A model generated the notes under the pieces. That model was given only the letters and a program-made list of their open reading frames with translations. It was not told the DNA's origin and did no database searches. Made by a program: the position numbers and the translations under genes. Shown here in pieces: positions 1-13,543 of a stretch of DNA of 64,000 bases (the first letter of the stretch is position 1; each line of letters starts with the position of its first letter). Source of the stretch: an uncultured Nitrososphaeraceae archaeon (GTDB lineage Archaea; Thermoproteota; Nitrososphaeria; Nitrososphaerales; Nitrososphaeraceae); the NCBI GenBank assembly GCA_963765895.1, contig CAVXZB010000059.1:19789-83788 (forward strand). Direction: 5' to 3'.

Positions 1-21
1 AAAGTAACATTCAGGAAGATT

Positions 22-285
22 TTGAAAGCTGCCCCGGCTAACGAAATCGTTAAGCTGGCAAGAGATGTAGCTCAAAATAGCTCGAGGATAATTATTCCTG
101 CAAGATACGGGACACTGTCACTCACAAGCGCTTTAGAGTATCTCAACAATCTTGCAGATTACGCCTATTTTGTCGAGCGTAGTGAAGTTGTTTCACCCGG
201 AGGAAAACGAGTAATTACGTTAATCCACAGTTACTGGAAAAGGGGGGTTAATCTTTGTCAAAGCTTACACGAAAGCTCCCTTTGA
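22..285 (+). CDS. hypothetical protein (probably 5'-truncated by window edge), MGE gene cluster
   Basis: Open frame at the window start, tightly followed by other small + strand ORFs leading into MCM. Confidence 0.45.
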   Translation: MKAAPANEIVKLARDVAQNSSRIIIPARYGTLSLTSALEYLNNLADYAYFVERSEVVSPGGKRVITLIHSYWKRGVNLCQSLHESSL

Positions 286-576
286 ACAGATTAATAGGAA
301 ACCGAAATTAAATTCGACAGAATAAGGCATCATCTAAAGGTAGCTGTTCAAACTGCACCCGCTATCAAAGACAAATCGCCGGACTAAAAAGGGCCCTCAT
401 AAAAGCTGACGACAAGAACGTGCGCCACACTATGCAATATGAGGCCACGATAAACCGGTCAAAGGCTGAACACCATTCACAAAAGTCAAAAAGGGCTGGT
501 GTTGGAACAGGTTGGGCAACCCGAGGCCAACACCGCCCGAAGCATATCAACTTCCATGAACTGGTGAAGAACAAGG

Positions 577-1118
577 ATGATGATCGCTAGAGGTACATTA
601 TCAGAAGATGAAAATAAACGTTTTCAAGACAAGGAAACTAATTCTAGCCTTAGTAACAAATCAATTACAAATCAATTACTTAGATTACCAGAAGAAGAAT
701 TCTGTAGGCTAGTTGCAATCCGTCTGAATACGCCACTATCAAAAGCCGATCAAAAAGAGTTTGGAGAGGAACCTAGAGAATATTGGTCATTGAACTATCT
801 AGTAGAGGAGATCTTCCTTAAAATTGCCCAATTGAGGATTTTAGTTACTCATAACGGTAAGCAAGTTAGCATTTACAAATACTATAATCAGGCTCTACGC
901 CTAAAAAGTGGATTCCCATAGCAAAGGCACCAGTTGAATTTGTCATCAACGCATCAGATCTAACTTTAAGGATTTTGGTAGAACTCAAAGCATTAGGTCA
1001 TGAAGAATCACAACAAGTGCTAAAATTAGCGGTCATAAAAATTTTCGAAAATATTGTTGGTCCCAGATATGCTCATGGTAGTATTATTCGAAATCTAAGT
1101 GCGAGGTTGGATAAATAA
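577..1118 (+). CDS. hypothetical protein upstream of MCM (ORF 577-921 plus open frame to 1118; frameshifted single gene or two genes)
   Basis: ORF 577-921; another frame reads IPIAKAPVEFVINASDLTLR...RLDK* to TAA 1118, immediately before ATG 1120. Confidence 0.45.
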
Positions 1119-1119
1119 C

Positions 1120-3335
1120 ATGGCCTCAACAGCCAGTCACATTGTACTCTGTCTCTGAAGCAAAGAAGATTAAGTCTGGGCAGATAACGGTTACTGGAAT
1201 CATAAGCTCACTTTCTACTCAATACTGGGTAATATCTAATTCAAAGTGGGAATGCCCTAATTGTAACCAAGTCGGTAGCCAGAATTATATACCACCTCGT
1301 ATGCTCCCACCAAGACGCCTGGACAATATATCAAGTACCGAATTAAAGTGCTTTGAATGTCACAGCACCGCATTTACTGTTAGCCATGAATACCATACAG
1401 CCAAGACTATTCAAGTCATTGATGCTGATAATAACCATAATGAAAACTATGATTCACTTGAGGTAGTGTTATATGATGAATCATGGAGTCATGCATTTGC
1501 CGGCGAAATTGTAGATATAACAGGTGATCTACATGTCCAGCCAAAGACACAAAGCGTAATCAATAGCAATGGCAAGAAACTTGTCAGTATTTTACATAGT
1601 AGTAGACTTAACTCAAAACATAGAGAAAAGATCATAATCACCCATAAAGATATTGAAATCTTTAAGAGACACAAGGCAATATGTGAAAAGGCTTACCAAA
1701 GTGAACTTGAAACCATAGAGCGTTATCCAGAGATAGCAAAAAAGATCAAACCAATGCGATATATCGATAGAGTTGTTGCAATGGTTGCACCTAATGTAAT
1801 AGGACATAACGACAAAAAATTGGGACTACTAAGATCTATAGTTGGAGCAAGATCAGATCACGGAAATGATAATGGAAGAAGGGGAAGAATAAATACACTG
1901 CTCGTAGGCGAACCAGGGACAGCAAAGAGTACATTAGCAAAAGAGGCTACTCGTTTATTACCTAATTCCAGATATGTAACAGCTCAACATGCTAGTGGCA
2001 AAAGCCTCATTGCTATTGTCGATAAAGAAAATGATAGTCTAGTATGTAGGTATGGAGTAGTTGTACTTGCTAAGGGCGCCGTTTGTGCAATAAATGAGAT
2101 AGGCGCTATGAATCCTACAGATCAACAATTTTTGCTAGATATTGCTGAGGAAGGAAGATGTACCGTAGATAAATACGGCACCCATTTCGAGATCGACGCA
2201 CCCACAACCATCATAGCGACAGCAAATCCACTTAATCAAACTTGGAGCAAGGGCTATAACATATCAAAAGACGAGATACCAATACTCAAACCTCTTCTTG
2301 ATAGATGTGATCAAGTTTATGGATTCATGGATTTTCAATCTGAAAATGAAATCAATGAATTCACAGTACCAGAAAACTAGGGTTAGAAACCGTCCATCAC
2401 ATAACTATAATTTCCTAAGGAAATTACTTGTTTATACTAAAACCCTCGAGCCTGTAGTGACAGACGATGTAGGAGCTAGACTAAACAATTTTTGGGAGAA
2501 GGGTAAAATTCAGGGAGCAGTTACCACTAGGGCATACGATTCAATATTTAGGATCGCAGAAGCGCAAGCAAGACTTAACCTCAGTAACATAGTCACAGAC
2601 GATATCGCAACTCAGACAATGAATTGGATCGGCCTAATGATATCACAATACGGTAAAGTTGTAGTAACAATCCGAAGCCCGCGCGATGCCGCTTATAATG
2701 CATTCGTGGACATCTTAAAACATACTAGTATTGGCATAACTATCACAGAGCTTTGTGCTAGGGTATGCAAGGAAAATAGACATATAGCTGAATACTTGGG
2801 CGAGAAGTGGAATATTGAACATAATCATAAGCTAAGAGCTGTAACTGACATGCTCCTAAACCACGGAAAAATAAAATTAGTAAATGCCAAGCCAATGGTA
2901 CTACAATACATCGATAAGGAAATATCATCTGACAAATCTGACGTATCTGACACAACTATCAAGGCCAGTCAAAATAATGTGGCACTGTCCACAACTGACG
3001 CATCTGACGTATCTGACACGATATCGGTTAACATGAAAAAGTTGCCCGCATTCATGACTGAACAAAATAATCTGCAACCTGACATATCTAATCTATCTGA
3101 CACTGCCCAGACTAACACCAATAAATCGGCCAATGTTATGACTGAACAAAATAATCAGCTATCTGACATATCTGACATATCTGACACATTCGGAGACCAG
3201 CAGATTATCAAGGAACAAGAATCGTGTAATATCTATAGACTCGGACACTCAGATACTTGGGCTTGCGAAAATTGCAGACAAAAAGGAGATGTACATCACA
3301 TGAGAGGACATCTGTGTAGTGGAGATGCAAAATAA
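1120..3335 (+). CDS. mcm: MGE-type MCM helicase with C-terminal wHTH-like region, SDx repeats and Zn-binding tail (frameshifted at ~1140 and ~2365)
   Basis: CPNC..CFEC Zn motif, APNVIGH, Walker A GEPGTAKS, Walker B CAINE, IIATANP, LLDRCD arginine finger, TTRAYDSIFRIAEAQAR sensor-2; ORFs 1142-2380 and 2298-3335 join. Confidence 0.9.
2928..3185 (+). repeat. intragenic iteron-like array: 4 clusters of 3 x 9-bp units (TCTGACNNA)
   Basis: TCTGAC-like hexamers at 2928/2937/2946, 2994/3003/3012, 3078/3087/3096 and 3162/3171/3180. Confidence 0.9.
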
Positions 3336-3560
3336 CCAGTCATGATTCTATCTCCATTTATGAAAAGATTGTTAAATATGGTCCTGTTACCTTACAGTCT
3401 ATTTAAGTAATTTAAAAAAGTATTAATCGTCATCGTACAAAGTATGAAATACGGCTTGCTAGCTTCATGATTATGTACAGTTTTGTATCATTGTTTTCTA
3501 TTTGTATTCGCTCACTAGATTCAATATTCTACAATTGGTTTAAATACTTCAATCGATTAC

Positions 3561-4406
3561 ATGATGGTTCTGATTCCGCAGGAATATCTAGATCACGCTT
3601 GGATTATAATATCGAATCCGATCATAACTGGCATAATTGGAGTCGCTATAGATCATTTTTTATTGAAACCATTTTAGAGAAAAATAGAAATAGGAAAAAA
3701 GCATTATTACAACACTATAAGACATTAAGAGAAGATGTTCTTGATCACTGGCTTCAATATGAAGCGGAACTGTATTCACAACTAAATACGTTTCCTAAAA
3801 CAACCATACCTCTATATACACAAATTTCGGAGAAACTAAGGTCGAAATACTTCAATCGGCTCCGATCACATCTGAAGATATCTTATAAAGAAATCGATGA
3901 TATAATAACTGATATCGAAGAAAGTGAATCAAAGCACAATCAGGAAGTTGCCGATTTTATTAACGGGTTGAAACAAAGAATTAGAAATACAGTTTACATA
4001 GAAAATGACTGTAGGTTAGAAGGCATATCTGAGCATCAATTCGCAACCGATGTTACACCACGCTTCGTTTTAGACCATATCATTCATTACTATATCGAGA
4101 AATTCAGCAGACCTGATTACCAATTAGCGGTACGAAAATTGAACTCACATTATCAACTGTACAGGGCTTCTGACATGAAAGAAATTGGTAGAGGAGATCA
4201 ACAAAGCATGGAATGCCTAAAGAAAAAACTGGACGTCCAAGAACGTGATATAATAAAAGTACTAAAACGAACTTAGTGATGAAGGAAACAGACTAATTAA
4301 ACGCTTTCTAGAGCTCAAATCAAAGGCGACTGACTTAGTCGTACAGATAGATGACGGTTATCTTTATGGTAAATGTGACTTCGAATCAAGACTACGATTC
4401 TTCTGA
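3561..4406 (+). CDS. membrane-anchored hypothetical protein (two apparent frameshifts)
   Basis: ATG 3561 gives a hydrophobic IITGIIGVAI segment; joins ORF 3467-4276; another frame continues ELSDEGNR...YGKCDFESRLRFF*. Confidence 0.55.
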
Positions 4407-4550
4407 TCCATTTTTTTAGTGTTTTGAATCATAGTTACCCATATTTTTTTCATCAACCTTGATTCCACACTTCTCAGTAGGGGTTTTCCTATTTAACCCC
4501 ATATGCATGGCGGTCATAATAATTTGTGAGATTGTATAATTATATCTGAT

Positions 4551-4748
4551 GTCAGATAGGTCAGATAGCTCAGATAGAGGTGGAGAGCTGCATAAGATTA
4601 AGGACTGTCGGCCATACTAATGTCAGATGGGTCAGATACGTCAGATAGTTACAGTTCTAGGTGAATAGAGATTATCCGCTGCTAGGGGGTCAGAAACGTC
4701 ATATATGTCAGATGGGTCAGATACGTCAGATGGGTCAGATACGTCAGA
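4551..4748 (-). repeat. inverted TCTGAC 9-bp-period array (clusters of 3, 3 and 7 units)
   Basis: GTCAGA-like hexamers at 4551/4560/4569, 4622/4631/4640 and every 9 bp from 4689 to 4743. Confidence 0.9.
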
Positions 4749-4902
4749 TAGTGGAGCATGCGCCCTCCTACTCATTTTTCATCAATACTGAGCTTAGAGT
4801 TGTCATTCGATCTAATGATGAAATATAAGCGAGCGATTTTAATAACACATAGAATCACGGTACTATAAAATAAGAAGAGCAATTTTATTAAAGGAATATT
4901 AA

Positions 4903-6303
4903 ATGACAGAGGAAAATTCTTCAAAGCGATCTAAGGACCACAATACTCCTGAAAAACAGAGGGCATTAGTACTCCAAGGAGGGGGAGCATTGGGTGCGTA
5001 TGAAGTAGGTGTATTGAAAGTGCTGTGTAAAAAGCTTCTTGAAAGTGGTGGAAACGACACGGAAAATGGGCCGTTATTTGATATTATTGCAGGCAGTTCC
5101 ATGGGTGCAATGAACGCCGCAGTGCTTGTAAGCAATGTAGTCAACAGACATAAGAGCTGGAAAGAAGCAGTAGGAGTGCTTGAAGATTTTTGGATGGATG
5201 AAAAAAATGGTCTCTCGTCCACTCCAGATATTAACAAATGGTTGGATGACGCAAAAAAACAAAAAAACTTTAATGCTTCATCAGAGGCTGCAAGAAGATA
5301 TTACTCAGTAAAATATTACTTAGCTAAGGGAACACCAAATGTGTGTTTTAAAGATCCAGAACCAGAACGTGATGTGAAATTTGGCGATAGGGATAATAAT
5401 AACAATCCGGTACAATGGACTTGGTATATTAGCGATCCATTACAACATACTATAGAGCGATATTCAAAAGATGAAAATACTGAAAAATTGAAAATAGCTA
5501 CCAGCTGGGAACATAGACAGCCTAGGTTACTTGTCATTAGCGTTGATGTATCTGACGGGAAGACAATAACATTTGATAGTTATCACACAAAAGATGATCT
5601 TGAAAAAGGAGTGTATGAAGGTGATGGTATTACTATAGATCATATTATGGCTAGCGGTACGATACCGCTCTTCTATAAGTTCCGGGTAATAGATGGAAGA
5701 AGTTTCTATGATGGAGGTTTTTTAAATAATACACCATTTAGAGAACTCTTGCAGGCACATAGGGATTATTGGACTAAAGTAGCAGATAATGTCAAAGCTA
5801 AAATTCCCGATCTGGATGTGTATATAGTAAACGTGCATCCTTCTAAAAGAAATATTATTCCTAACGACCATGATGGGGTTAATGATAGATTTAATGATAT
5901 AACATATTCAGACAGGAATTCTGGCTATGATGAAATGGTAACAGATATTGTAACAGACTACAATGATTTGGAAGAAACATTGCTTGGCGCCATACAATTA
6001 ATACATAAACTTACTAATACAAATGAGGGTATGGTATTTCAAAATGGGTTTGAGCAGTTTCTAACGATTGCTGAAGAAAAAAGTAAAACACGAGAAGTTA
6101 GGCGGGAAAAATACAAAGATCTAATAAAAGGCAAATTCACATTAAAACAGGTAATAAGAATAGAACGTGCATCTGACGTAGATGCTATTACCGGTAAGGA
6201 AGCGGATTATTCCAGCAAAGCTACAGACTTTACTCATGATTCCATAAAGATGCTAATTGAACAAGGAGAAAAAGATGCATTGAAGATACTCGAAGGATGT
6301 TAA
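4903..6303 (+). CDS. patatin-like phospholipase/esterase
   Basis: LVLQGGGALGAY, GSSMG nucleophile elbow, FYDGGFLNNTP; intact 466 aa. Confidence 0.92.
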   Translation: MTEENSSKRSKDHNTPEKQRALVLQGGGALGAYEVGVLKVLCKKLLESGGNDTENGPLFDIIAGSSMGAMNAAVLVSNVVNRHKSWKEAVGVLEDFWMDEKNGLSSTPDINKWLDDAKKQKNFNASSEAARRYYSVKYYLAKGTPNVCFKDPEPERDVKFGDRDNNNNPVQWTWYISDPLQHTIERYSKDENTEKLKIATSWEHRQPRLLVISVDVSDGKTITFDSYHTKDDLEKGVYEGDGITIDHIMASGTIPLFYKFRVIDGRSFYDGGFLNNTPFRELLQAHRDYWTKVADNVKAKIPDLDVYIVNVHPSKRNIIPNDHDGVNDRFNDITYSDRNSGYDEMVTDIVTDYNDLEETLLGAIQLIHKLTNTNEGMVFQNGFEQFLTIAEEKSKTREVRREKYKDLIKGKFTLKQVIRIERASDVDAITGKEADYSSKATDFTHDSIKMLIEQGEKDALKILEGC

Positions 6304-6506
6304 TATTATAATCAAGACAAAGGTATCTTTTCTAATACGTTAAACCAGCTCCAACACATCCTGTATAACATGAGTCCGAAAATAAGAGTCAGAGTCAAAT
6401 ATTCAAGCTCTGGCTCGATTCATATCTCAAAAGACTTGTTTCATATCGGAACCTGACTATAATTTCTCTCATAGCCAATCAAAATGAATCCTATTCAGGA
6501 TATGAT

Positions 6507-6688
6507 GTCAGATATGTCAGATATGTCAGATAGGTCGTTGGGCTGGATACAGATAGTTCAATGCGATGCGAGATTAAGGTTGGGGAGGTCAGATAGGTCA
6601 GATAGGTCAGATAGTTGAAATGCAATCAAGGCGGTATGTGGTTCAAGATTCGCAGCTATAAAGTGTCAGATAGGTCAGATAGGTCAGA
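6507..6688 (-). repeat. inverted TCTGAC 9-bp-period array (3 clusters of 3)
   Basis: GTCAGA at 6507/6516/6525, 6588/6597/6606 and 6665/6674/6683. Confidence 0.9.
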
Positions 6689-6788
6689 TGGACCTTAATT
6701 GTATTATAATGACACGAACATTGCCATCATCGCTCAGGTAATAGACACGTCAGCTCGTGTGATCCTCTAATTCATATGTCATGGTAGT

Positions 6789-7104
6789 GATCCTATTGAT
6801 AGGTAAAACTATCAAGACCGGTGATTAACTTAATATCAGTCAACTATTAATTGGTGATACCTATAGATAGTAGCAATTAGTCGATGCGAATCAACATACT
6901 AATTCCGTTAATATGCAATAAGTTCAACACATCGGACAATATCGGATTTTTAACACATCTAGCATAATCATCCCGGAAATAACGTTATAATAAGATAGGA
7001 GCGTGCCAGGTTATAAATATTATCAAAAAATCTGTGTCCTATGTGTAGACTGACGTCCCAGGATGGTGATAAAATTTGTGTATGCTGATATGATGAGGCG
7101 CGCC
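6789..7104 (+). repeat. conserved non-coding element X, copy 1 (longest)
   Basis: Shares GATCCTATTGATAGGTAAAA with 14221; shares CTATAGATAGTAGCA, GGACAATRTCGGATT, GCGTGCCAGRTTATAAATA and GAGGCGCGC with 15645-15928. Confidence 0.8.
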
Positions 7105-8128
7105 AAATATCACGTAAAACTGGGTATCATGGATTTGCAATTTGCTCGCTTTTGTATCAACACCTGGCTGAAAGCCTGTTATTGTGTCTGTCCCAGGTCC
7201 ACAATTAAACTAGTCGCGTCCTGCGCCTCCAGTCAGAATATCGTTACCATCGCCAGCTGGATCTAATAGATATAGTTTTTGAAAAATTGATCCGCAGTAT
7301 AGACGCGGTCATGATGACTAACAGGTATATCAGGAGAAGCAATGACTACTCAGAGTCTTGGCCTATCCCCCTCGTAGATGGGGAGATAAAAGGAATTAGT
7401 AAGACTAAGCAATACCATGACCGCGGTGATAATCAATATAGCGAAGGAAAAAATTTGCAAATTAATGGTCCTAAAATCTAGAGTATGTATAATTAGTTTT
7501 TTATAGGCAAATTTCACCCTCCTGCCCACCTAAGATAGTCAAGTGTGTCGGTTTAGAAATGGTCCCCTTTCATAGTAGGCCTAATACTGTTTTTGGTGAA
7601 AAATAGGTAAAATATAATGAATAAATATTCAGATTTTTCTTACATAATACCTATTTTAAGGCCATTAGTAGTGTATACAAATAATGGACAAAATTAATTT
7701 ACTTGTCAAAACTCTCTTGATAACCACTCCTCTCAGTTCCAATTGTAGCAGTAACAGTAATCAGCAACTCGAATAATTATAAGCAAATGCGTCTACTAAT
7801 ACTACAGAAACACTATCTTCGCTACCATTATCAATTCCATCTCTTCCATCTGCTTCTTTAGTAAATGAAACGGTTACTTCCTCTAATAATAATTCGTTTG
7901 TATATGCAAGTCCAACTGTTTTAAATTTAAGAGTCTTTGGATAGAGTGGATAGGTGGGTTATAAAGTTCCACTATATAATTTGGTACACGTCCTGCTCCC
8001 TTATGCTATGGCCTTCAGCTAAATGAACTCCTAAAGCATCCTATGAACGAAACTCAAAGAGATCAGTTGTTAAAACATTTCTTTTACAAAAAACTTGGTA
8101 TACGCAGCAAACTTTACTAAATATTTTA

Positions 8129-8630
8129 ATGGCAAAAATTAGCACACCAACTGAGACTAAAATCACAGGCCCAACAGGTCCAGGAGTTATTTGCAAATTC
8201 CCCTACCGCTCAGAAACAAACACTACTGCAAATAATTGTAATCCTTCACTATGGAACTTTATGCCACTACCCGGGCCACCAAGGTTAGATAATGCTCAAC
8301 CCATGTGTCACGGTAGCAGGAAATGTATCTGTGGTACAGTTTCCAGCCGATGGAGATGCAGTTATGGCCTTAACATTGGATAAACCATATAGCAATATGG
8401 TTACGGTAGGAGAAATTTCAATGACAAAATGAAAGGAGGGATATGGGTAGAATTAATATATTAGAAAAGCCAATGAATTTAACCACAGTTGAACCCTTCA
8501 AAATAGGATCTTGTAAAGGCTATAATGGACCGGTATTTAATCTTCCTAAAGTGGGAGACCACTTGACGGTAACAGGTAAATACATAATTGATGTGCGCCG
8601 CGAAGGCGGTCATGCTAATCCACCTACCCT
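8129..8630 (+). pseudogene. frameshifted paralog of the secreted protein at 9594-10380
   Basis: Reassembled frames: CNPSLWN..PPRL..PCVTVAG..DGD..LDKPY..PKVGDHLTVTGKYIID. Confidence 0.65.
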
Positions 8631-8762
8631 CGAGGGTAGATATGGATGTCCATCCCCGCATAATCGTGGTGACGTGTGGCGAGCCTTGTAATAGAATTTA
8701 CTTAAAGTCTTAAACCTAACGTTAAGTCAATGCTGACCAGAGAGAATTTGAACCAATAAAAA

Positions 8763-9063
8763 TTATTTTTTCTCCTTTTCGCAACATTTTACATTCGGAC
8801 ACTTTAACAATCAATTCATTTATCATGTTTGCTCCTGCAATACTAAGAGCATGAATAATGATTCTGCTGAATGGGGTTCGCCTTTGGAGCTAACCGTTCT
8901 AATAGTACTTATTTGTCCACATTGAGAGAGCATCTTATTAAATAGAAGTGCATTTTCTTTCCTTAGAGCATCTGTAAAGCCATTCCATGTTTCGATCTCT
9001 TTAGCTAAGATATGGACATTGCCATTTTCATTTTGTTCATCTTTGGGACACTTCCATTATCAT
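8763..9063 (-). pseudogene. small conserved thaumarchaeal helical protein (LxxEIExWxxFxxALR family), frameshifted
   Basis: Minus strand reads HILAKEIETWNGFTDALRKENALLFNKMLSQC..SAESLFMLLVLQEQNMINEL. Confidence 0.55.
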
Positions 9064-9382
9064 CTTGAATAGTTTACATTCTCTTTAATAATAGATCGCA
9101 AGGGGAGAGGCGAATGAGTTTGTATATTCATTGAAATATACTTATGTGCTGCTTTCATGAACGTGATCTCAATTTGGTCAGGCTTAGCACTTAGGTCTAA
9201 CCGAAGAGAAGACGGCGAGGACGCCTTGCTATAGGTAGGCGCAAGTATTAACGTCTAATCATATGTCTTGAATAGTAGCGATCACTGAAGTTGGTTATCA
9301 AGTAATCTTGTTCAGCGATTATTATTTCTAGACTCAATCAACTTTAATACAACCAGATCTGATTAATAATTAACAGGATAAA

Positions 9383-9589
9383 ATGACATACTCCTTACAT
9401 AAGAATACTGAAACTATAATTGAGTTATCTGATGATTTTGTCAATCGTCTGATTAAAGATTTGGAGGAACTAGCAAATAGTAAGAAACTTTCGGATACGC
9501 ATGAAAGAGCAGACAAAATATTATTGGAATTTGCCCCTGATGAAATTAAGGATGCTTGGAAAAAGGTAACAAAAGTGAAGATAGAATAA
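9383..9589 (+). CDS. small hypothetical protein
   Basis: 68-aa ORF with protein-like composition and an upstream TATA-like TTTAATA. Confidence 0.55.
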   Translation: MTYSLHKNTETIIELSDDFVNRLIKDLEELANSKKLSDTHERADKILLEFAPDEIKDAWKKVTKVKIE

Positions 9590-9593
9590 ACCT

Positions 9594-10380
9594 ATGACAA
9601 CCATGAGGGGATGCATAATAATCTCATTTTTGTTTGCCTCTTTAGTCATTGTTCTCGTTGCTATCCCTGACGTTTTATTTCCTCAAAATAGTTGAGGCAA
9701 GATGTCCAAATGGTTATCACAAAAGTCCGAATGGCGATTGTGAACTGGTGGTTTCTCATGAAGGAAAGTGGCCTAGATGTCCAAATGGTTTCCATCGTAG
9801 TCCAGATGGAGATTGTGAGAGAGTCGCCGATAATAATAGTAATGATGGCAACAATAAATAATGAGGACCAACTAAGCGACATTCCTTCCAATAACGGCAA
9901 AGATACAACTAGCAATAGATTCTCATCATCTGGTACCTCAGCCTCTATTCCACTATCACCATCAATTGTAACAGCCTCCGAATCAACACCAGGAAAATGT
10001 GACGACTCACTTTGGAATCATGTATATAATCCAAGCAGGTTGCAGATAGTTGATAAATGCATAACTGTAACTGGTATTATCGACAGTATCAGATCTGAAC
10101 AAGACGGTGATTTGCATATACGATTAAAGCTTGATCCTTCGCATTCTCATCTAGTAAACCAGGCTAATGAGAAAACCAATTTGGAGATCTAGTCCTAGAG
10201 CCTATTTGTATAGGAAAAGTAACCCAAGCGAGTGCAATTTCTGCTTGTCAGAATTTCCATCAAGGCATTGATATTCCACCAGTAGGTAGCCACATTCAAG
10301 TTATTGGATCCTATGTATTAGATAAGGAACATGGTGAATGGGCAGAAATACATCCTATTACAACTATAGCAAAGGAGTAA
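9594..10380 (+). CDS. secreted protein with two RCPNG(Y/F)HxSPxGDCE repeats and a C-terminal putative OB-like domain (about 3 frameshifts)
   Basis: Signal peptide from ATG 9594; ORFs 9649-9861 and 9692-10192; continuation LVLEPIC..PPVGSHIQVIGSYVLDKEHGEWAEIHP to TAA 10380. Confidence 0.7.
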
Positions 10381-10914
10381 CAATTACACTCACAGTCATT
10401 GCCAACAATATCGACGAGCAGTATTGTATCCAAATTATTCCTTTACGTTAGAACAGAAACGAGATAGATCTCAGTGTTTAGACAATATTGGGCGAGCCAT
10501 GTTTTACCATAGTAACTAATGATGCTTATTTCGCATTGGTCTTGGATTAGGTCCCTTCTTTCAACTTCGATAAGGATGTCTCCCCAGCGTCCTCAACTGC
10601 AATCGATTTTTAGCTTCTGGTTAATGCTAGGATTGTATCCAGTTCATCCATCTCTATACGGCGCGATGGACTGCCTTCCCTTCTGGATACCTTTAGTAGG
10701 TAACCGTGAGGATAATTCATAGTCGGTATTCCTCTATCCATCAGAAATGCCTTGGCTTCCTCAGCATTCATTTTTCAGAGGTATCTGGCCGATATCGTTT
10801 AAAACACTATGGACCTGAAAAATTGCCCATTATGTGCATATCCAAAGCGTATGAATTCTCAAGCAATCTCTATATTGTATTCTTTTCTACAATCATCCAG
10901 CCACCATGGAACTA

Positions 10915-11010
10915 GAAATGCCAAGGACGGGATCCTGGTCGATCACTGGGATGTGATTCAAGACGAGGCGAACCAGGAGCCAGTCAAAGAGCGGTCTTCC
11001 CATGTTCGTG
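10915..11010 (+). pseudogene. SnoaL/NTF2-like C-terminal fragment
   Basis: KDGILVDHWDVIQDEA..SKSGLPMF matches a typical NTF2-family C-terminus. Confidence 0.5.
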
Positions 11011-11115
11011 TCATGGACTAGATTTTTTTATCTATATTCAAGATTACCGTAACCATGGATAGAACACATATCGCCGTCATTATGGAATAGCCATTGTTGA
11101 TGTATAGAAAACCAA

Positions 11116-11323
11116 CCCTGACGGATTAGATTTGCTAGTTATTCTCATGGAATTTTCACGCTCAGACCACTAGTAATATTCTATCCGTCAGGGTATCCAT
11201 AGTAACCATCAGTACATATTTCAATTCTATGTAACAAAATTAATTAATTTCTATAAGGAATAGCACGTATTCATAATATGGAAAACCAATATAGTACTAT
11301 GGATACCCTGACATCTCTGACGG
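11116..11323. repeat. alternating inverted CCCTGAC-type repeat structure
   Basis: CCCTGACGGAT (11116-11126) / ATCCGTCAGGG (11183-11193); perfect 18-bp IR 11187-11204 / 11295-11312; 9-bp-spaced CCCTGAC-CTCTGAC at the end. Confidence 0.8.
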
Positions 11324-11466
11324 CCTAATTTTTCGAGTACACCAAAAAGCGTAAAAGAGCCAGCTACTTATCGAAGAATTGGGGGCCACACATAGGAACA
11401 CCTGCCCACAATAAGCCCTCTACTGAAACTTTATGGTCTGATTATAAGTTTTGGGTATTTTCCTTA

Positions 11467-11721
11467 CTAATTTATATAATATTTCTTAAGCAGACTGTCT
11501 AGTAATACCTCAGTATCATCAACATCAAATATCTTCGTGGTTCCTCCCTGACTCATGCATTCCTCAGTGAATTCATAGATATGCCTTGTCAGCGCTTTGA
11601 TTGCCCCTGATACTATAAGCGGCATCATGCTGTAGTGACCAACTGCCCCAGGAGGATGCCCGTTCAGGATTGCTGCCGTTTCTATATCACTCTTCGTTGT
11701 TACTTTGAATGGATATCCCAT
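11467..11721 (-). pseudogene. C-terminal fragment of a hypothetical protein
   Basis: Protein-like 84-aa frame; the broken upstream frame extends toward ~11900. Confidence 0.35.
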
Positions 11722-12008
11722 TTCTACTGAAATATCGTCTGATTCCGATGCTTCCCCCTTTCAAACTTTCATCATCGTTGAGTGTTAGGCTCGGCGGGAC
11801 CATCCACGAGTTCTTCTTAGACATTACTAAGCTGAATTGTACCAATAGTTGAGTAAATGCTCGGAAGTATCAAATATTGAGATACTATTTCCGCAGGTAT
11901 TCCTAAATCTTTGATAAGACGATTGATATCCGTAATATTCAAGCTATTAACAATGCAGTGCCGCTTCCTGACAATAATAAATATACGAGATGATGTGAAT
12001 AGGATTTT

Positions 12009-13543
12009 ATGAATTCCAGTATCAACAGAGCATTAATATTTCAAGGAGGCGGTTCGCTTGGTGCATACGAAGCGGGTGCCTATAAAGCTATTAATGAAGA
12101 ACTTTCAGCATACTTTAGATCAGTAGGCAGAGGAAACGAGCCAATATTTCATATCGTATCCGGAACGTCAATAGGCGCAATAAATGCTCCTTTACTAGTA
12201 AGCTATGTAAAGGAAAATAAAACATGGGAAGGATCAGGCGAAAGGCTTGTCGAGTTTTGGGAATATCTGTCTACTCAGTCGTCTGTTGAAAACATACCAT
12301 ACTTTACAAACTATTGGGATTCTTGGCGTAGATTAGATAGACGAATTGCTTCAGGAGAATCTGCCAGAAGATACTTTAGCACTAAGGAATTTATTTTTAG
12401 AGGAGTTCCCCATGTGTTTATACCAAAGACACCCTTGCCAGACAATAGATTTTTTGATCCTTCAAATACGTGGTATGTCTATGACAATAGACCATTAAAA
12501 GAAAGCTTGGAAAAGTTTGCCAAGTTTCCTATTTCCACAAGCTTCGAGAATAATGAACCAAGACTCTTGCTAGTTGCTGTGGATGTACAAGAGGCTACTC
12601 CTGTGGTTTTCGATAGCTACGAAAAAGAGGATGGAACAAGGAAGTCTGAATATGGCAAATATGGTAGAGTTAAATTTATAGATTCAGCGAAGAATCAGAA
12701 TGAGAATCAGGAGAAAGAGGCATTTGAGCACGTTATAAGATACGATGATGGCATAAAGTCAGATTTCGTTTTGGCCAGCTGTTCAGTTCCAGTTAATTAT
12801 GACTATACTAGGATAAATGTGGAAACCCGAAACCTGGCCTTGGGAGAAGGACGAGACGAGAAAAATGTAGCCATGGAGATTAATAATCGGCCTCATCAAA
12901 TGATGAAAGTAATAGCGACTTACGCATCTTCTGGGACGGTGGACTATTAGCTAATACACCTCTAAGACAGACCTACCTTGCTCACAAGCATTATTGGCAG
13001 CGAGTTAGAAAATTAGAAGATAATATACCAAGTCTCAAATTTGGTATAATAAATCTCCATCCGATTAAACAAGAATATCCTTCTTATGATTATGATGGCG
13101 TTATTGACAGGAAGAACGATATCATATACCATGATAGAACAGAATTTGATGAATATGTTGCAGTTCTTATATCTGATTATGCAACACTCGCAGACCAGCT
13201 AATTAAATTAGCCGAAGGGAATGGTATGAGTAAAGAAGCACTCCAAACAATTTTGAATAGAAAAGCTAAGGCTACTTTTTTAGCCACGGGCAAGCATGGG
13301 AGATATATTGATTTAGTAAAGGGTAGAGTAGATATTGATTTTGTTGCTCGCTTGGAACGAAAGAACGACAGTCATACTATTTCAAATAAGACATTTGACT
13401 TTTCAAAAACTACGGTCCGACAGCTAATTCAAGACGGATATGACGAGAGTAAGGAACAGATGAAAGCAATAGTTGCTAGTTTAAGAGAGGGAATTGTCTG
13501 GCACATAGTCACTTTTCAGAATCTAAAATTCCTGTTTTGTTGA
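12009..13543 (+). CDS. patatin-like phospholipase 2 (frameshift ~12890)
   Basis: FQGGGSLGAY, GTSIG; FWDGGLLANTP appears in the shifted frame, which continues into ORF 13226-13543; paralog of 4903-6303. Confidence 0.88.

Follow-up and report, generated by a model that had tools for sequence, protein, structure and literature searches.

By what means the MCM helicase of an archaeal virus, plasmid or integrated element locates its DNA is an open question, and a locus in the genome of an uncultured Nitrososphaeraceae archaeon raises it in a concrete form. In a stretch of 64,000 nucleotides (contig C59, positions 19789-83788, hereafter called the window; the source assembly comprises 4.9 Mb in 88 contigs with 36.8% G+C) the 3' end of an MCM helicase gene is occupied by clusters of three short direct repeats with a period of 9 bp, and the same repeats recur on the opposite strand in non-coding DNA on both sides of a patatin gene. 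An initial annotation, made from the letters alone, took them for iterons of a replication origin which is recognised by a winged-helix (wH) segment of the MCM protein itself. In the following, G000 designates the genome of the window, C numbers are contigs, L numbers are fetched loci, and G001, G023 and G181 are genomes of relatives. The comparison of these loci shows that the arrays are DNA-level elements which are tied to MCM, have a fixed geometry and carry lineage-specific cores. That the wH domain binds them and that they function as an origin is what we infer from the comparative evidence and from the likeness to replication systems of Staphylococcus aureus pathogenicity islands (SaPIs).

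For the array scan of the window the pattern TCTGACNNNTCTGACNNNTCTGAC was used with at most one mismatch, and 100 shuffles served as background. Thirteen (TCTGACN3)x3 matches were obtained, compared with 0.00 expected. The repeat unit consists of seven conserved base pairs (ATCTGAC) and two variable ones. On the plus strand, matches at 2928, 2994 and 3162 lie in the MCM 3' end, and a degenerate cluster at 3078 (CCTGAC/TCTAAT/TCTGAC) was read from the sequence. Counted in units of 7 bp, cluster 1 (2927..2951) comprises three copies of ATCTGAC at the 9-bp period, starts six codons past the wing of the wH domain and is read as SDK SDV SD; cluster 2 (2993..3017) consists of AACTGAC, ATCTGAC and ATCTGAC, the degenerate cluster 3 (3077..3101) of ACCTGAC, ATCTAAT and ATCTGAC, and cluster 4 (3161..3185) again of three copies of ATCTGAC. 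The starts are 66, 84 and 84 bp apart, as initially annotated, but three exact hexamers are present in clusters 1 and 4 only: cluster 2 opens with ACTGAC, and cluster 3 has three mismatches in two of its units. On the minus strand, a non-coding inverted block (4551..4749) is composed of clusters at 4551-4575 (three units), 4622-4646 (three units) and 4689-4749 (seven units, the hexamers spanning 4689-4748), and a second non-coding block (6440..6689) comprises, besides a conserved lead-in of 60 nt, the clusters 6507-6531, 6588-6612 and 6665-6689, in which nine of nine units are exact. Places and unit counts of these arrays had been given correctly, with the correction that the 7-unit cluster contains the imperfect units GTCAGAA and GTCATAT and that the third unit at 4551 is CTCAGA; the external cluster spacings of 71, 67, 81 and 77 and the bracketing of the patatin gene by minus-strand clusters were found as described. 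The orientation is constant, with TCTGAC on the sense strand of MCM and GTCAGA on that of patatin. Read along the window, four sense clusters in the MCM tail are followed by the open reading frame (ORF) orf269, three inverted clusters, the patatin gene and three more inverted clusters. The description of the spacers as mostly unrelated had to be abandoned: an 84-bp duplication (88% over 50 nt) accounts for clusters 3 and 4 and the spacers belonging to them, and the external spacers contain segments which are kept across genomes of the genus, e.g., AGTTCAATGCGATTCGAGATTA. Lead-in and spacers of the 6440-6689 block are likewise common to other genomes of the genus.

Four of the clusters are translated, and the repeat might exist at the protein level only, as an acidic Ser-Asp linker of MCM, with the non-coding copies representing decayed MCM 3' ends. 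A (S/C/T)-D-x triplet does occur at a fixed place past the wH domain in most homologs, and the linker is predicted to be disordered in an AlphaFold2 (AF2) model, as would suit such a peptide. The codons argue against it, however. In the linker of the window 11 of the 12 Asp codons are GAC, compared with 8 of 30 elsewhere in the MCM gene and 27.6% in long ORFs of the genome; of its 15 Ser codons ten are TCT (24.1% in long ORFs), and all ten lie within array units. In the 'x' codon the amino acid-changing positions 1 and 2 vary, while all third positions, in the Ser, Asp and 'x' codons alike, are fixed. Constraint on synonymous positions, which had been proposed as a check, is therefore present in the S, D and x codons, and since the positions that change the amino acid vary, the reverse of protein-level selection, the SDxSDxSD peptide is to be regarded as a by-product. 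Depending on the locus, the arrays sit in coding DNA in either orientation or past the stop codon (both sets in L197 and L210, the second or only set in L181, L192, L205 and L189), and some precede a start codon. The core determines which peptide a sense set encodes (SDx, CDx, PTD, YDx or SHS), and inverted sets give SDx (TCA GAT), SHx or QKC. The three units of one set share one residue, which differs among lineages, so that the units switch jointly among Ser, Cys, Thr, Tyr and others across lineages and are also read in other frames (QKC, SHS). The external blocks have neither an open frame nor MCM-like flanks. With this, the protein-level-only reading is largely refuted and its remaining probability close to negligible, and we are highly confident that the arrays are DNA-level sites which are functionally tied to the MCM module.

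A genome-wide motif scan, suggested with the initial annotation, found the arrays not to be scattered. For this count an array was defined in a relaxed manner by at least three units, at least two of them exact. All of the 24 arrays in the 4.9-Mb genome fall into six loci, on C59, C26, C27, C25, C22 and C61, each of which contains a paralog of the window's MCM gene, of its patatin gene or of both. The C26 locus is a 92% identical copy of window positions 320-12000, in which the genes for MCM, orf269 and patatin are broken in frame at many places. C27 carries the array-patatin-array block only (window 4544-6940, 88% identity), with homology starting 7 nt outside the first array, and no MCM; the block 6440-6689 moves with the patatin gene to C27 and C22. 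A comparison of core and spacer conservation among the copies within G000 was uninformative, because at 88-92% identity the spacers are kept, too.

For the distribution among relatives, 238 genomes of the same family were compared. MCM homologs are patchy among them, as a multi-copy locus present in 37 genomes at E<=1e-30. In a class-level sample, 14 of 78 genomes of the family contained this MCM clade, compared with none of 223 from the largest sister family and one of 10 from another family; the single locus of the latter has no array. The exact triplet occurs in 29 of the 238 genomes and the motif written backwards in none. Among 20 loci fetched around TCTGAC triplets of other genomes, 12 have an MCM homolog (26-56% identity) adjoining the array. 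In six array-MCM loci the neighbours include a PriX-type primase-like gene (three loci) and a family B DNA polymerase (PolB) gene (two loci). The co-location with MCM and primase genes, which had been proposed as a check across the family, was seen in these proportions, and because primase-like and PolB genes stand beside MCM, the array-MCM loci can be regarded as replication modules. Viral contigs, queried with one protein and the alignment A5, yielded no relative, and Rfam gave no match for positions 1-9000 of the window. A pattern scan over all prokaryote contigs returned at least 121 stretches, mostly bacterial; it was considered unspecific and not used for counts.

At least 9 of the 29 genomes with the exact triplet have long TCTGACCAT/TCTGACTAT tandems only. 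These tandems of 4-13 units represent a protein low-complexity repeat, read (NGQ)n or (NSQ)n, with variable copy number, and were set aside as unrelated to the MCM arrays because no MCM lies nearby. They derive from another genus of the family and from a Nitrosopumilus record (L135-L139, L141, L145, L146, L148, L035, L076). In nine of ten tandem loci examined, the tandem falls within a conserved ORF of 219-819 aa (about 650 aa if complete) on the opposite strand; in the tenth, a TCTGACTTA tandem lies within a 247-aa frame. At a further locus (L165, G025:C6), ATCTGAC triplets with genus-typical spacers were seen at 8091 and 8168, about 800 nt downstream of an ORF with DUF5906, which we take to be a domain typical of superfamily 3 (SF3) primase-helicases; there is no MCM at this locus.

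The geometry of the arrays was assessed in a set of 55 distinct MCM loci in which the wH domain was placed by profile. Within a stretch of 560 nt, starting 60 nt before the wH end, period-9 triplets are present in 45 of the 55 loci (72 arrays), compared with 0 of 55 in an equal 560-nt stretch within the MCM gene. Triplets with periods of 7, 10 and 11 were found in no locus, with a period of 8 in two and with a period of 12 in one; the whole-genome background of exact period-9 triplets amounts to 62 per 4.9 Mb, these families included. Among the best 30 MCM loci of the family, 18 contain an exact 6-mer three times at the 9-bp period and one a low-complexity period-8 repeat, and nothing was found at periods of 6, 7 and 10-15. 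The cores follow the MCM lineage and include ATCTGAC, ATCTGAT, ATGTGAT/ATCACAT, ATGTGAC, ATATGAC, ATATGAT, AACTGACC, AGTGACC, GGTGAC and a few others. Other MCM paralogs of G000 (C1, C3, C33; 27-33% identity) show the same architecture with the core ATCACAT/ATGTGAT. In the usual layout one set is located within -7 to +60 nt of the wH end and a second set follows further on in inverted orientation. Convergent inverted pairs were recognised by a strict detector in 24 of the 55 loci, one of them doubtful owing to a partly palindromic core, whereas a triplet 41-126 nt upstream of the inferred MCM start is rare (4/54). The spacer of a pair measures 56-378 nt in 21 cases; in the G001 relative it reaches 609 nt and in the window, where about 1.4-1.6 kb and one gene lie between sense and inverted clusters, 1597 nt.

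This layout requires a revision of two initial proposals. An intragenic origin is a local accident, as the arrays of relatives straddle or follow the stop codon, and the orphan origins flanking cargo lose their basis where relatives have a convergent inverted pair at 56-378 nt, which in the lineage of the window extends to 0.6-1.6 kb with a gene inserted. The inverted partner is likewise distant in the closest lineage (+1249 nt in C25, +660 and +1060 nt in the G001 locus, with different genes between), and for this reason the block 4551-4749 is likely the displaced inverted half of the array pair and not an orphan origin. The ORF orf269 (3467..4276, plus strand) probably represents an insertion into the pair. 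It was found only in the window and in its C26 copy and has no significant Pfam or PHROG match, HAAS remaining below cutoff. For the block 6440-6689, copy control by titration, a second origin and a recombination site are open candidates.

Some variation of the repeats may be recorded beside this. The recurrent variant unit within ATCTGAC arrays is ATATGAC (C25, C26, C27; L161, L162, L166, L182), a change of core base 3, which is also the base that differs between MCM lineages. A sub-clade comprising L211, L212, L214, L216, L218, L222, L225 and others has frames of 1045-1205 aa with a long N-terminal extension before the MCM part, the cores AATGTGATG/CATCACATT, and Asn or Ser at the position called X1 below. 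Triplets of TGCGACA at 9-bp period were noticed on C22:24934-25369 (L235:3435-3871), two sets direct and one inverted, in the 3' end of an ORF of 793 aa which has no Pfam or PHROG match and is followed by a PriX-like ORF. A profile comparison with hhalign ruled out that this ORF is an MCM; the TGCGACA family may provide a different helicase-like protein with an origin of this kind. Triplets of (A/G)ATGACA, again at 9-bp period, stand beside uncharacterised ORFs at C27:44118 and 45660, C48:28522 and C83:11309 (L236, L237, L240); on C27 the distance to the ATCTGAC-flanked patatin block is 1.3 kb, and a tyrosine-integrase-like gene lies about 3.5 kb away.

Which part of MCM could read the arrays was approached with an AF2 model of the window's C-terminal MCM part (321 aa, 25-row alignment). 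It predicts a lid (residues 1-92), a wH domain (104-180) with a helix at 153-163 followed by a beta hairpin, a disordered stretch (186-284) and a Cys/His domain (285-318). The wH domain reaches a block-mean pLDDT (predicted local distance difference test) of 88-95 and corresponds to 2679..2909 on the plus strand, with the putative recognition helix at 2826-2858, the wing hairpin at 2871-2909 and the residue X1 (Glu150) at 2817-2819. The disordered stretch coincides exactly with the array-coding DNA. Foldseek retrieved lid and winged-helix domain of Mcm4/6/7 (E 2e-4) as well as the cullin WHB domain. The small Cys/His-rich domain (3222..3323, plus strand) is modelled with two strands and a helix at a pLDDT of about 85. 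It is optional, as the homologs of G181 and G023 end just after the first set, without this domain, yet have both sets. The MCM genes of these two genomes in L179 and L181 are uninterrupted. Since it is absent from these array-bearing homologs, the wH domain is the only constant candidate reader within MCM. A Cys/His domain after the arrays also terminates the MCMs of L188, L193, L194, L202 and L206; by eye, some of these tails resemble a C2H2-type finger and others have an HSDxWxCExC...H..C motif.

Within the wH domain one residue, X1, follows core base 3. It is located two residues before the N-cap Asn of the predicted recognition helix. Where core base 3 is C, X1 is Asp or Glu in 17 of 22 loci (the others being three Gln, one Ser and one Val) and never Arg or Asn; where it is G, Asp or Glu occur in 0 of 14 loci, with six Arg (all with ATGTGAY cores), seven Asn and one Ser instead. 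In an unbiased scan of 171 columns of lid and wH, X1 ranked first with a mutual information of 0.89 of 0.94 bit, followed with 0.66 bit by column 159, which lies in the wing; only 2 of 39 rows have a residue at X1 that is common to both core classes. For a wider test, 150 representatives of a protein library clustered at 50% identity were taken, 109 of which reach the wH end, and the peptide after the wH domain served as proxy for the core. C-D-x was accompanied by Arg in 10 cases, by Asp/Glu in 0 and by others in 7, S-D-x by Arg in 3, Asp/Glu in 14 and others in 15 (Fisher p = 3e-5, uncorrected for kinship). At E<=1e-30 the library yielded roughly 4,000 hits. In trees of the AAA+ region the core class changes at least 6 and at least 12 times, with 2 and 6 well-supported contrasts.

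Several points count against X1 as the specificity residue. It was spotted by eye in the alignment before testing; the peptide proxy is imperfect, because AGTGAC also encodes S-D; and in the larger set the contrasts with X1=Arg point the same way in 2.7 cases, the opposite way in 0.2 and show no difference in 3.1 (sign test p ~0.25). In addition, the accessible part of the report on the SaPI5 helicase PriRep5 states that this protein reads bases with the wing and not with the helix (10.64898/2026.10.17.759575), and since the PriRep5 wing is the reader, the position of X1 is not the one expected by analogy. The co-variation of X1 and core is consistent in direction but unproven, the independent contrasts in the sequences being too few for significance.

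Taken together, these results lead to the following reading. Each unit would be a sequence-specific docking site with a core of 7 bp and two free bases, placed three in a row at a pitch of 9 bp, and the arrays would belong to MCM-helicase replication modules on mobile elements of this archaeal family. The likeliest reader would be the C-terminal wH domain of MCM, and each of several neighbouring subunits in a hexamer would occupy one unit. Two opposed sets would form the origin of the element, at which the helicase would act as its own loader and Orc1/Cdc6 would be dispensable. As no more than a few codons separate the wH domain from the start of the sets, these are often situated in the disordered C-terminal tail of MCM, where they are translated into the peptide that the core prescribes. 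In the window, the sense half would be the four clusters at 2927-3185 and the inverted half the block 4551-4749, pushed away by the inserted gene, with a further set past patatin. The initial proposal of a combined initiator-helicase with iterons read by its wH segment is strengthened by the DNA-level conservation, by the 9-bp period in 45 of 55 loci against none in the control, by the lineage-specific cores and by the tracking of X1, and it stays conditional as regards wH binding and origin function. We favour, with modest confidence, the full chain in which the ATCTGAC triplets are iterons of an initiator-helicase, wH binding and origin function included. The more detailed version, a self-loading family in which three neighbouring wH domains read three 7-bp iterons, opposed triplets place two hexamers and X1 (Asp/Glu, Arg or Asn) sets core base 3, is offered only tentatively.

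Some observations do not fit this reading easily. No array was found in 10 of the 55 MCM loci. The spacer between convergent arrays is not AT-rich (0.669 compared with 0.661 for the locus mean, which it exceeds in 12 of 22), and in the window the AT-rich minima at 3350-3500 and 4800-4900 are ordinary intergenic stretches. The inverted half of the window is about 1.4 kb off with a gene between, a third set flanks the cargo gene, and the MCM-less array-patatin-array block on C27 is not explained by a plain origin. Furthermore, the MCM frame of the window is broken once, and this copy may consequently be dead. The N-terminal part (1142..2380, plus strand) with OB fold and AAA+ P-loop domain (Pfam MCM 7.3e-36; MCM_OB 6e-05, with 23.2 vs 24.8 bits slightly below the curated cutoff) runs into a stop after the break, and the C-terminal part, comprising lid, winged helix, array-encoding linker and Cys/His domain, continues in another frame (2298..3335, plus strand; Pfam MCM_lid 5.8e-08, tblastn to the paralogs of C25 and C26, AF2 model). 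The two ORFs overlap, and the homology changes frame near 2355-2362. The C25 paralog has its frame break elsewhere in MCM. Public sequencing runs contain fragmentary low-depth contigs of soil and plant metagenomes (best word share 0.27) in which the frame-break bins 2328-2531 are uncovered. A joint of position 4877 to 6868 in one of the public runs has a side of only 42 nt, nine letters between and a far side situated within a multi-copy repeat. This joint defies interpretation and counts neither for nor against circular forms.

The same arrays could serve the control of transcription only, as operators bound by the MCM wH domain or another regulator, be it for autoregulation of MCM or for the primase, PolB or patatin genes. 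The triplets 41-126 nt upstream of the MCM start are placed as in auto-repressed rep genes, the arrays of the window bracket a cargo gene, and an AT-rich centre between the inverted sets is missing, all of which would suit operators. Yet the upstream position is realised in 4 of 54 loci, compared with 45 of 55 for the MCM 3' end, so that the constant position is not a promoter, and many arrays lie deep in coding DNA. The array 4689-4749 of the window stops 154 nt short of the patatin start codon, while a TATA-like box, identified by eye, is much nearer to the ATG and does not overlap with it. Convergent inverted sets beside a helicase gene also resemble known origins, as far as the accessible part of PMC9371898 describes them. 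Altogether we hold a purely regulatory role to be unlikely. A role in partition (as centromere-like sites), copy control or handcuffing, with another protein of the element as the binding partner and a merely physical linkage to MCM, is rather improbable. Arrays of short direct repeats flanking genes are typical of plasmid centromeres and were counted in its favour, as were the small uncharacterised ORFs that accompany MCM (orf114 upstream in C59, C25 and C26), an HTH-like ORF, seen by eye, after the arrays in L179, and the MCM-less arrays on C27, C22 and at several loci of the genus. On the other hand, neither a ParA/ParB/ParM-type nor another partition family of Pfam was detected among the neighbouring ORFs scanned in the window and related loci, MCM is the sole gene that is constant across the 55 loci, and the best-tracking residue sits in the MCM wH domain.

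Sites of recombination or transposition, either subterminal binding sites at the ends of an element or repeats mediating the capture of cassettes, would explain why arrays bracket variable cargo. The array-patatin-array block was moved or duplicated as a unit, its homology on C27 beginning 7 nt outside the first array; the genes between the array sets differ in C59, C25, C61 and G001, and several genomes have a conserved lead-in of 60 nt before the distal block. However, no transposase or integrase is consistently adjacent among the neighbours scanned, the two blocks flanking patatin are in direct and not in inverted orientation, and family-wide the arrays form a tight inverted pair at the MCM 3' end that encloses no cargo. 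We regard this explanation as very improbable. Two further candidates were rejected. CRISPR arrays consist of direct repeats of about 24-48 bp with unique spacers of similar size and are associated with cas genes or a leader; the units here measure 9 bp, come in threes and in both orientations, have spacers conserved between copies, and no Cas family was found among the scanned neighbours. Likewise, a bacterial iteron plasmid replicon of the RepA, pi or TrfA type was dismissed with regard to the period of 9 bp and the scanned neighbours, among which no Rep family was present. Iterons of an MCM initiator-helicase remain the reading that we prefer.

The gene bracketed by the arrays encodes a patatin-like phospholipase (4903..6303, plus strand; Pfam Patatin 3.8e-26). 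No PHROG was matched by orf114, orf94, orf269 or the primase-like ORFs. A second patatin-like gene is split into two ORFs at 12009-12950 and 13226-13543 (Patatin and DUF3734), and tblastn found patatin paralogs on more than 20 contigs of G000, an unusual expansion. Dispersed repeats resembling miniature inverted-repeat transposable elements occur at 6785-7250, 8700-9240 and 11100-11330, with dozens of copies of 70-90% identity on many contigs; the one at 6785-7250 starts about 100 nt past the last iteron cluster. Other genes near the window are split as well, e.g., GSDH at L001:17788-18882. Since strain duplicates or indel errors may be present in the assembly, pseudogene calls are unsafe.

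If the proposed reading is true, MCM would be loaded at a specific origin without Orc1/Cdc6, and the modules would be an archaeal, true-MCM counterpart of the self-loading SaPI helicases and a minimal system for origin-specific MCM loading. The specificity of a replicon could then switch by one change in the protein together with a concerted change of the repeats, and the agreement in geometry with PriRep5, an SF3 helicase, would suggest a solution that is either shared or convergent. Ammonia-oxidising archaea would moreover gain orthogonal replicons that are ready for use; to our knowledge, soil ammonia oxidisers lack genetic tools, for which replicon parts could come from such modules. In 45 of 55 loci the likely origin is recognisable by a simple DNA signature that can be counted and that brings with it natural variants of specificity and a candidate specificity residue, so that the question is directly testable with a small domain and oligonucleotides of 27 bp. 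The arrays furthermore indicate that a DNA element can shape the tail of a protein, as the SDx, CDx and PTD tails are by-products of iterons.

A comparison with known systems shows which features are familiar. The iteron plasmids P1, F, R6K and pPS10 encode Rep proteins with WH1-WH2 domains which are not helicases; their iterons measure 17-22 bp, and DnaA and DnaB of the host are needed. Common to both are direct repeats, a candidate wH initiator of the replicon, sets on both sides of the rep gene including a promoter set for autoregulation (here in 4 of 54 loci), and an incompatibility-like, sequence-specific diversity of the repeats, whereas the 9-bp period and a helicase that would itself be the initiator distinguish the archaeal modules. 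In phage lambda the ori repeats lie inside the frame of gene O, in the linker between two domains, with iterons of about 19 bp and dyad symmetry, and O is not a helicase. Repeats in the initiator's own frame are thus shared with lambda, but the intragenic place is facultative here, as relatives have arrays past the stop codon. Large T antigen of SV40 and E1 of papillomaviruses, SF3 helicases of eukaryotic viruses, carry the origin-binding domain N-terminal to the helicase and assemble two hexamers on inverted short sites. They combine initiator and replicative helicase in one protein, as proposed for the MCM modules, and likewise have inverted, short repeated sites.

Cellular archaeal MCM is loaded by Orc1/Cdc6 at origin recognition box (ORB) elements. 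The window's protein agrees with it in helicase family and in the domain order OB, AAA+, lid and C-terminal wH. The wH domain of the Sulfolobus and Methanothermobacter MCMs is described as truncated and wingless in the accessible part of PMC4357721, whereas the model predicts a beta-hairpin wing for the protein studied here. A survey of Thaumarchaeota from 2019 lists cryptic integrated elements that encode MCM, presumes that these MCMs "recruit the cellular replisome" and, in its accessible part, describes no repeats (PMC6563490). In the portion of the literature searched, including the accessible parts of PMC2194725 and PMC12934983, no archaeal precedent for repeats tied to such MCMs was found.

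The closest resemblance is to the Rep-ori systems of SaPIs, which are described here as far as the accessible parts of the two sources go. In these the helicase Rep is also the initiator, and its C-terminal winged-helix domain recognises iterons of 5-6 nt. Of these, 6-12 follow directly on the rep ORF, and an AT-rich region divides them into two halves that point in opposite directions; the MCM superfamily includes one of the Rep types (PMC9371898). Among the Reps of S. aureus SaPIs, Rep1 and PriRep5 are SF3 helicases and Rep2/SaPIbov1 Rep is an MCM-like member of SF6 (PMC9371898; 10.64898/2026.10.17.759575). In SaPI5 the 7-bp iterons L2-L4, with an AA dinucleotide between them, are bound by the C-terminal domains of three adjacent subunits, a fourth such domain binds a nearby inverted iteron, and the wing reads bases in the major groove (bioRxiv 10.64898/2026.10.17.759575). 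The archaeal modules differ from this in several respects. Their hosts are archaea, and OB fold, MCM P-loop and MCM lid identify their helicase as a true MCM; the arrays are commonly located in a translated coding tail, and the clusters are strict triplets. An AT-rich centre was not found, unlike in SaPI origins, and the best-tracking residue precedes the recognition helix, whereas PriRep5 reads bases with its wing. The likenesses concern the overall construction. The helicase gene lies on a mobile element, as indicated by Pfam matches to the MCM P-loop and MCM_lid and by the patchy, multi-copy locus; a C-terminal winged helix on a hexameric helicase is predicted from sequence and model; and in 45 of 55 loci short repeats, the putative iterons, occur where the helicase gene ends or just beyond. 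A primase gene beside the helicase gene agrees as well; the opposed sets, recognised in 24 of 55 loci, would correspond to those of the SaPIs, and the island-specific iterons there have a possible parallel in the lineage-specific cores here. With SaPI5 the archaeal arrays share the pitch of 7+2 bp and the run of three. By this analogy, the arrays together with MCM suggest an archaeal, true-MCM counterpart of the self-loading helicase origin of SaPIs.

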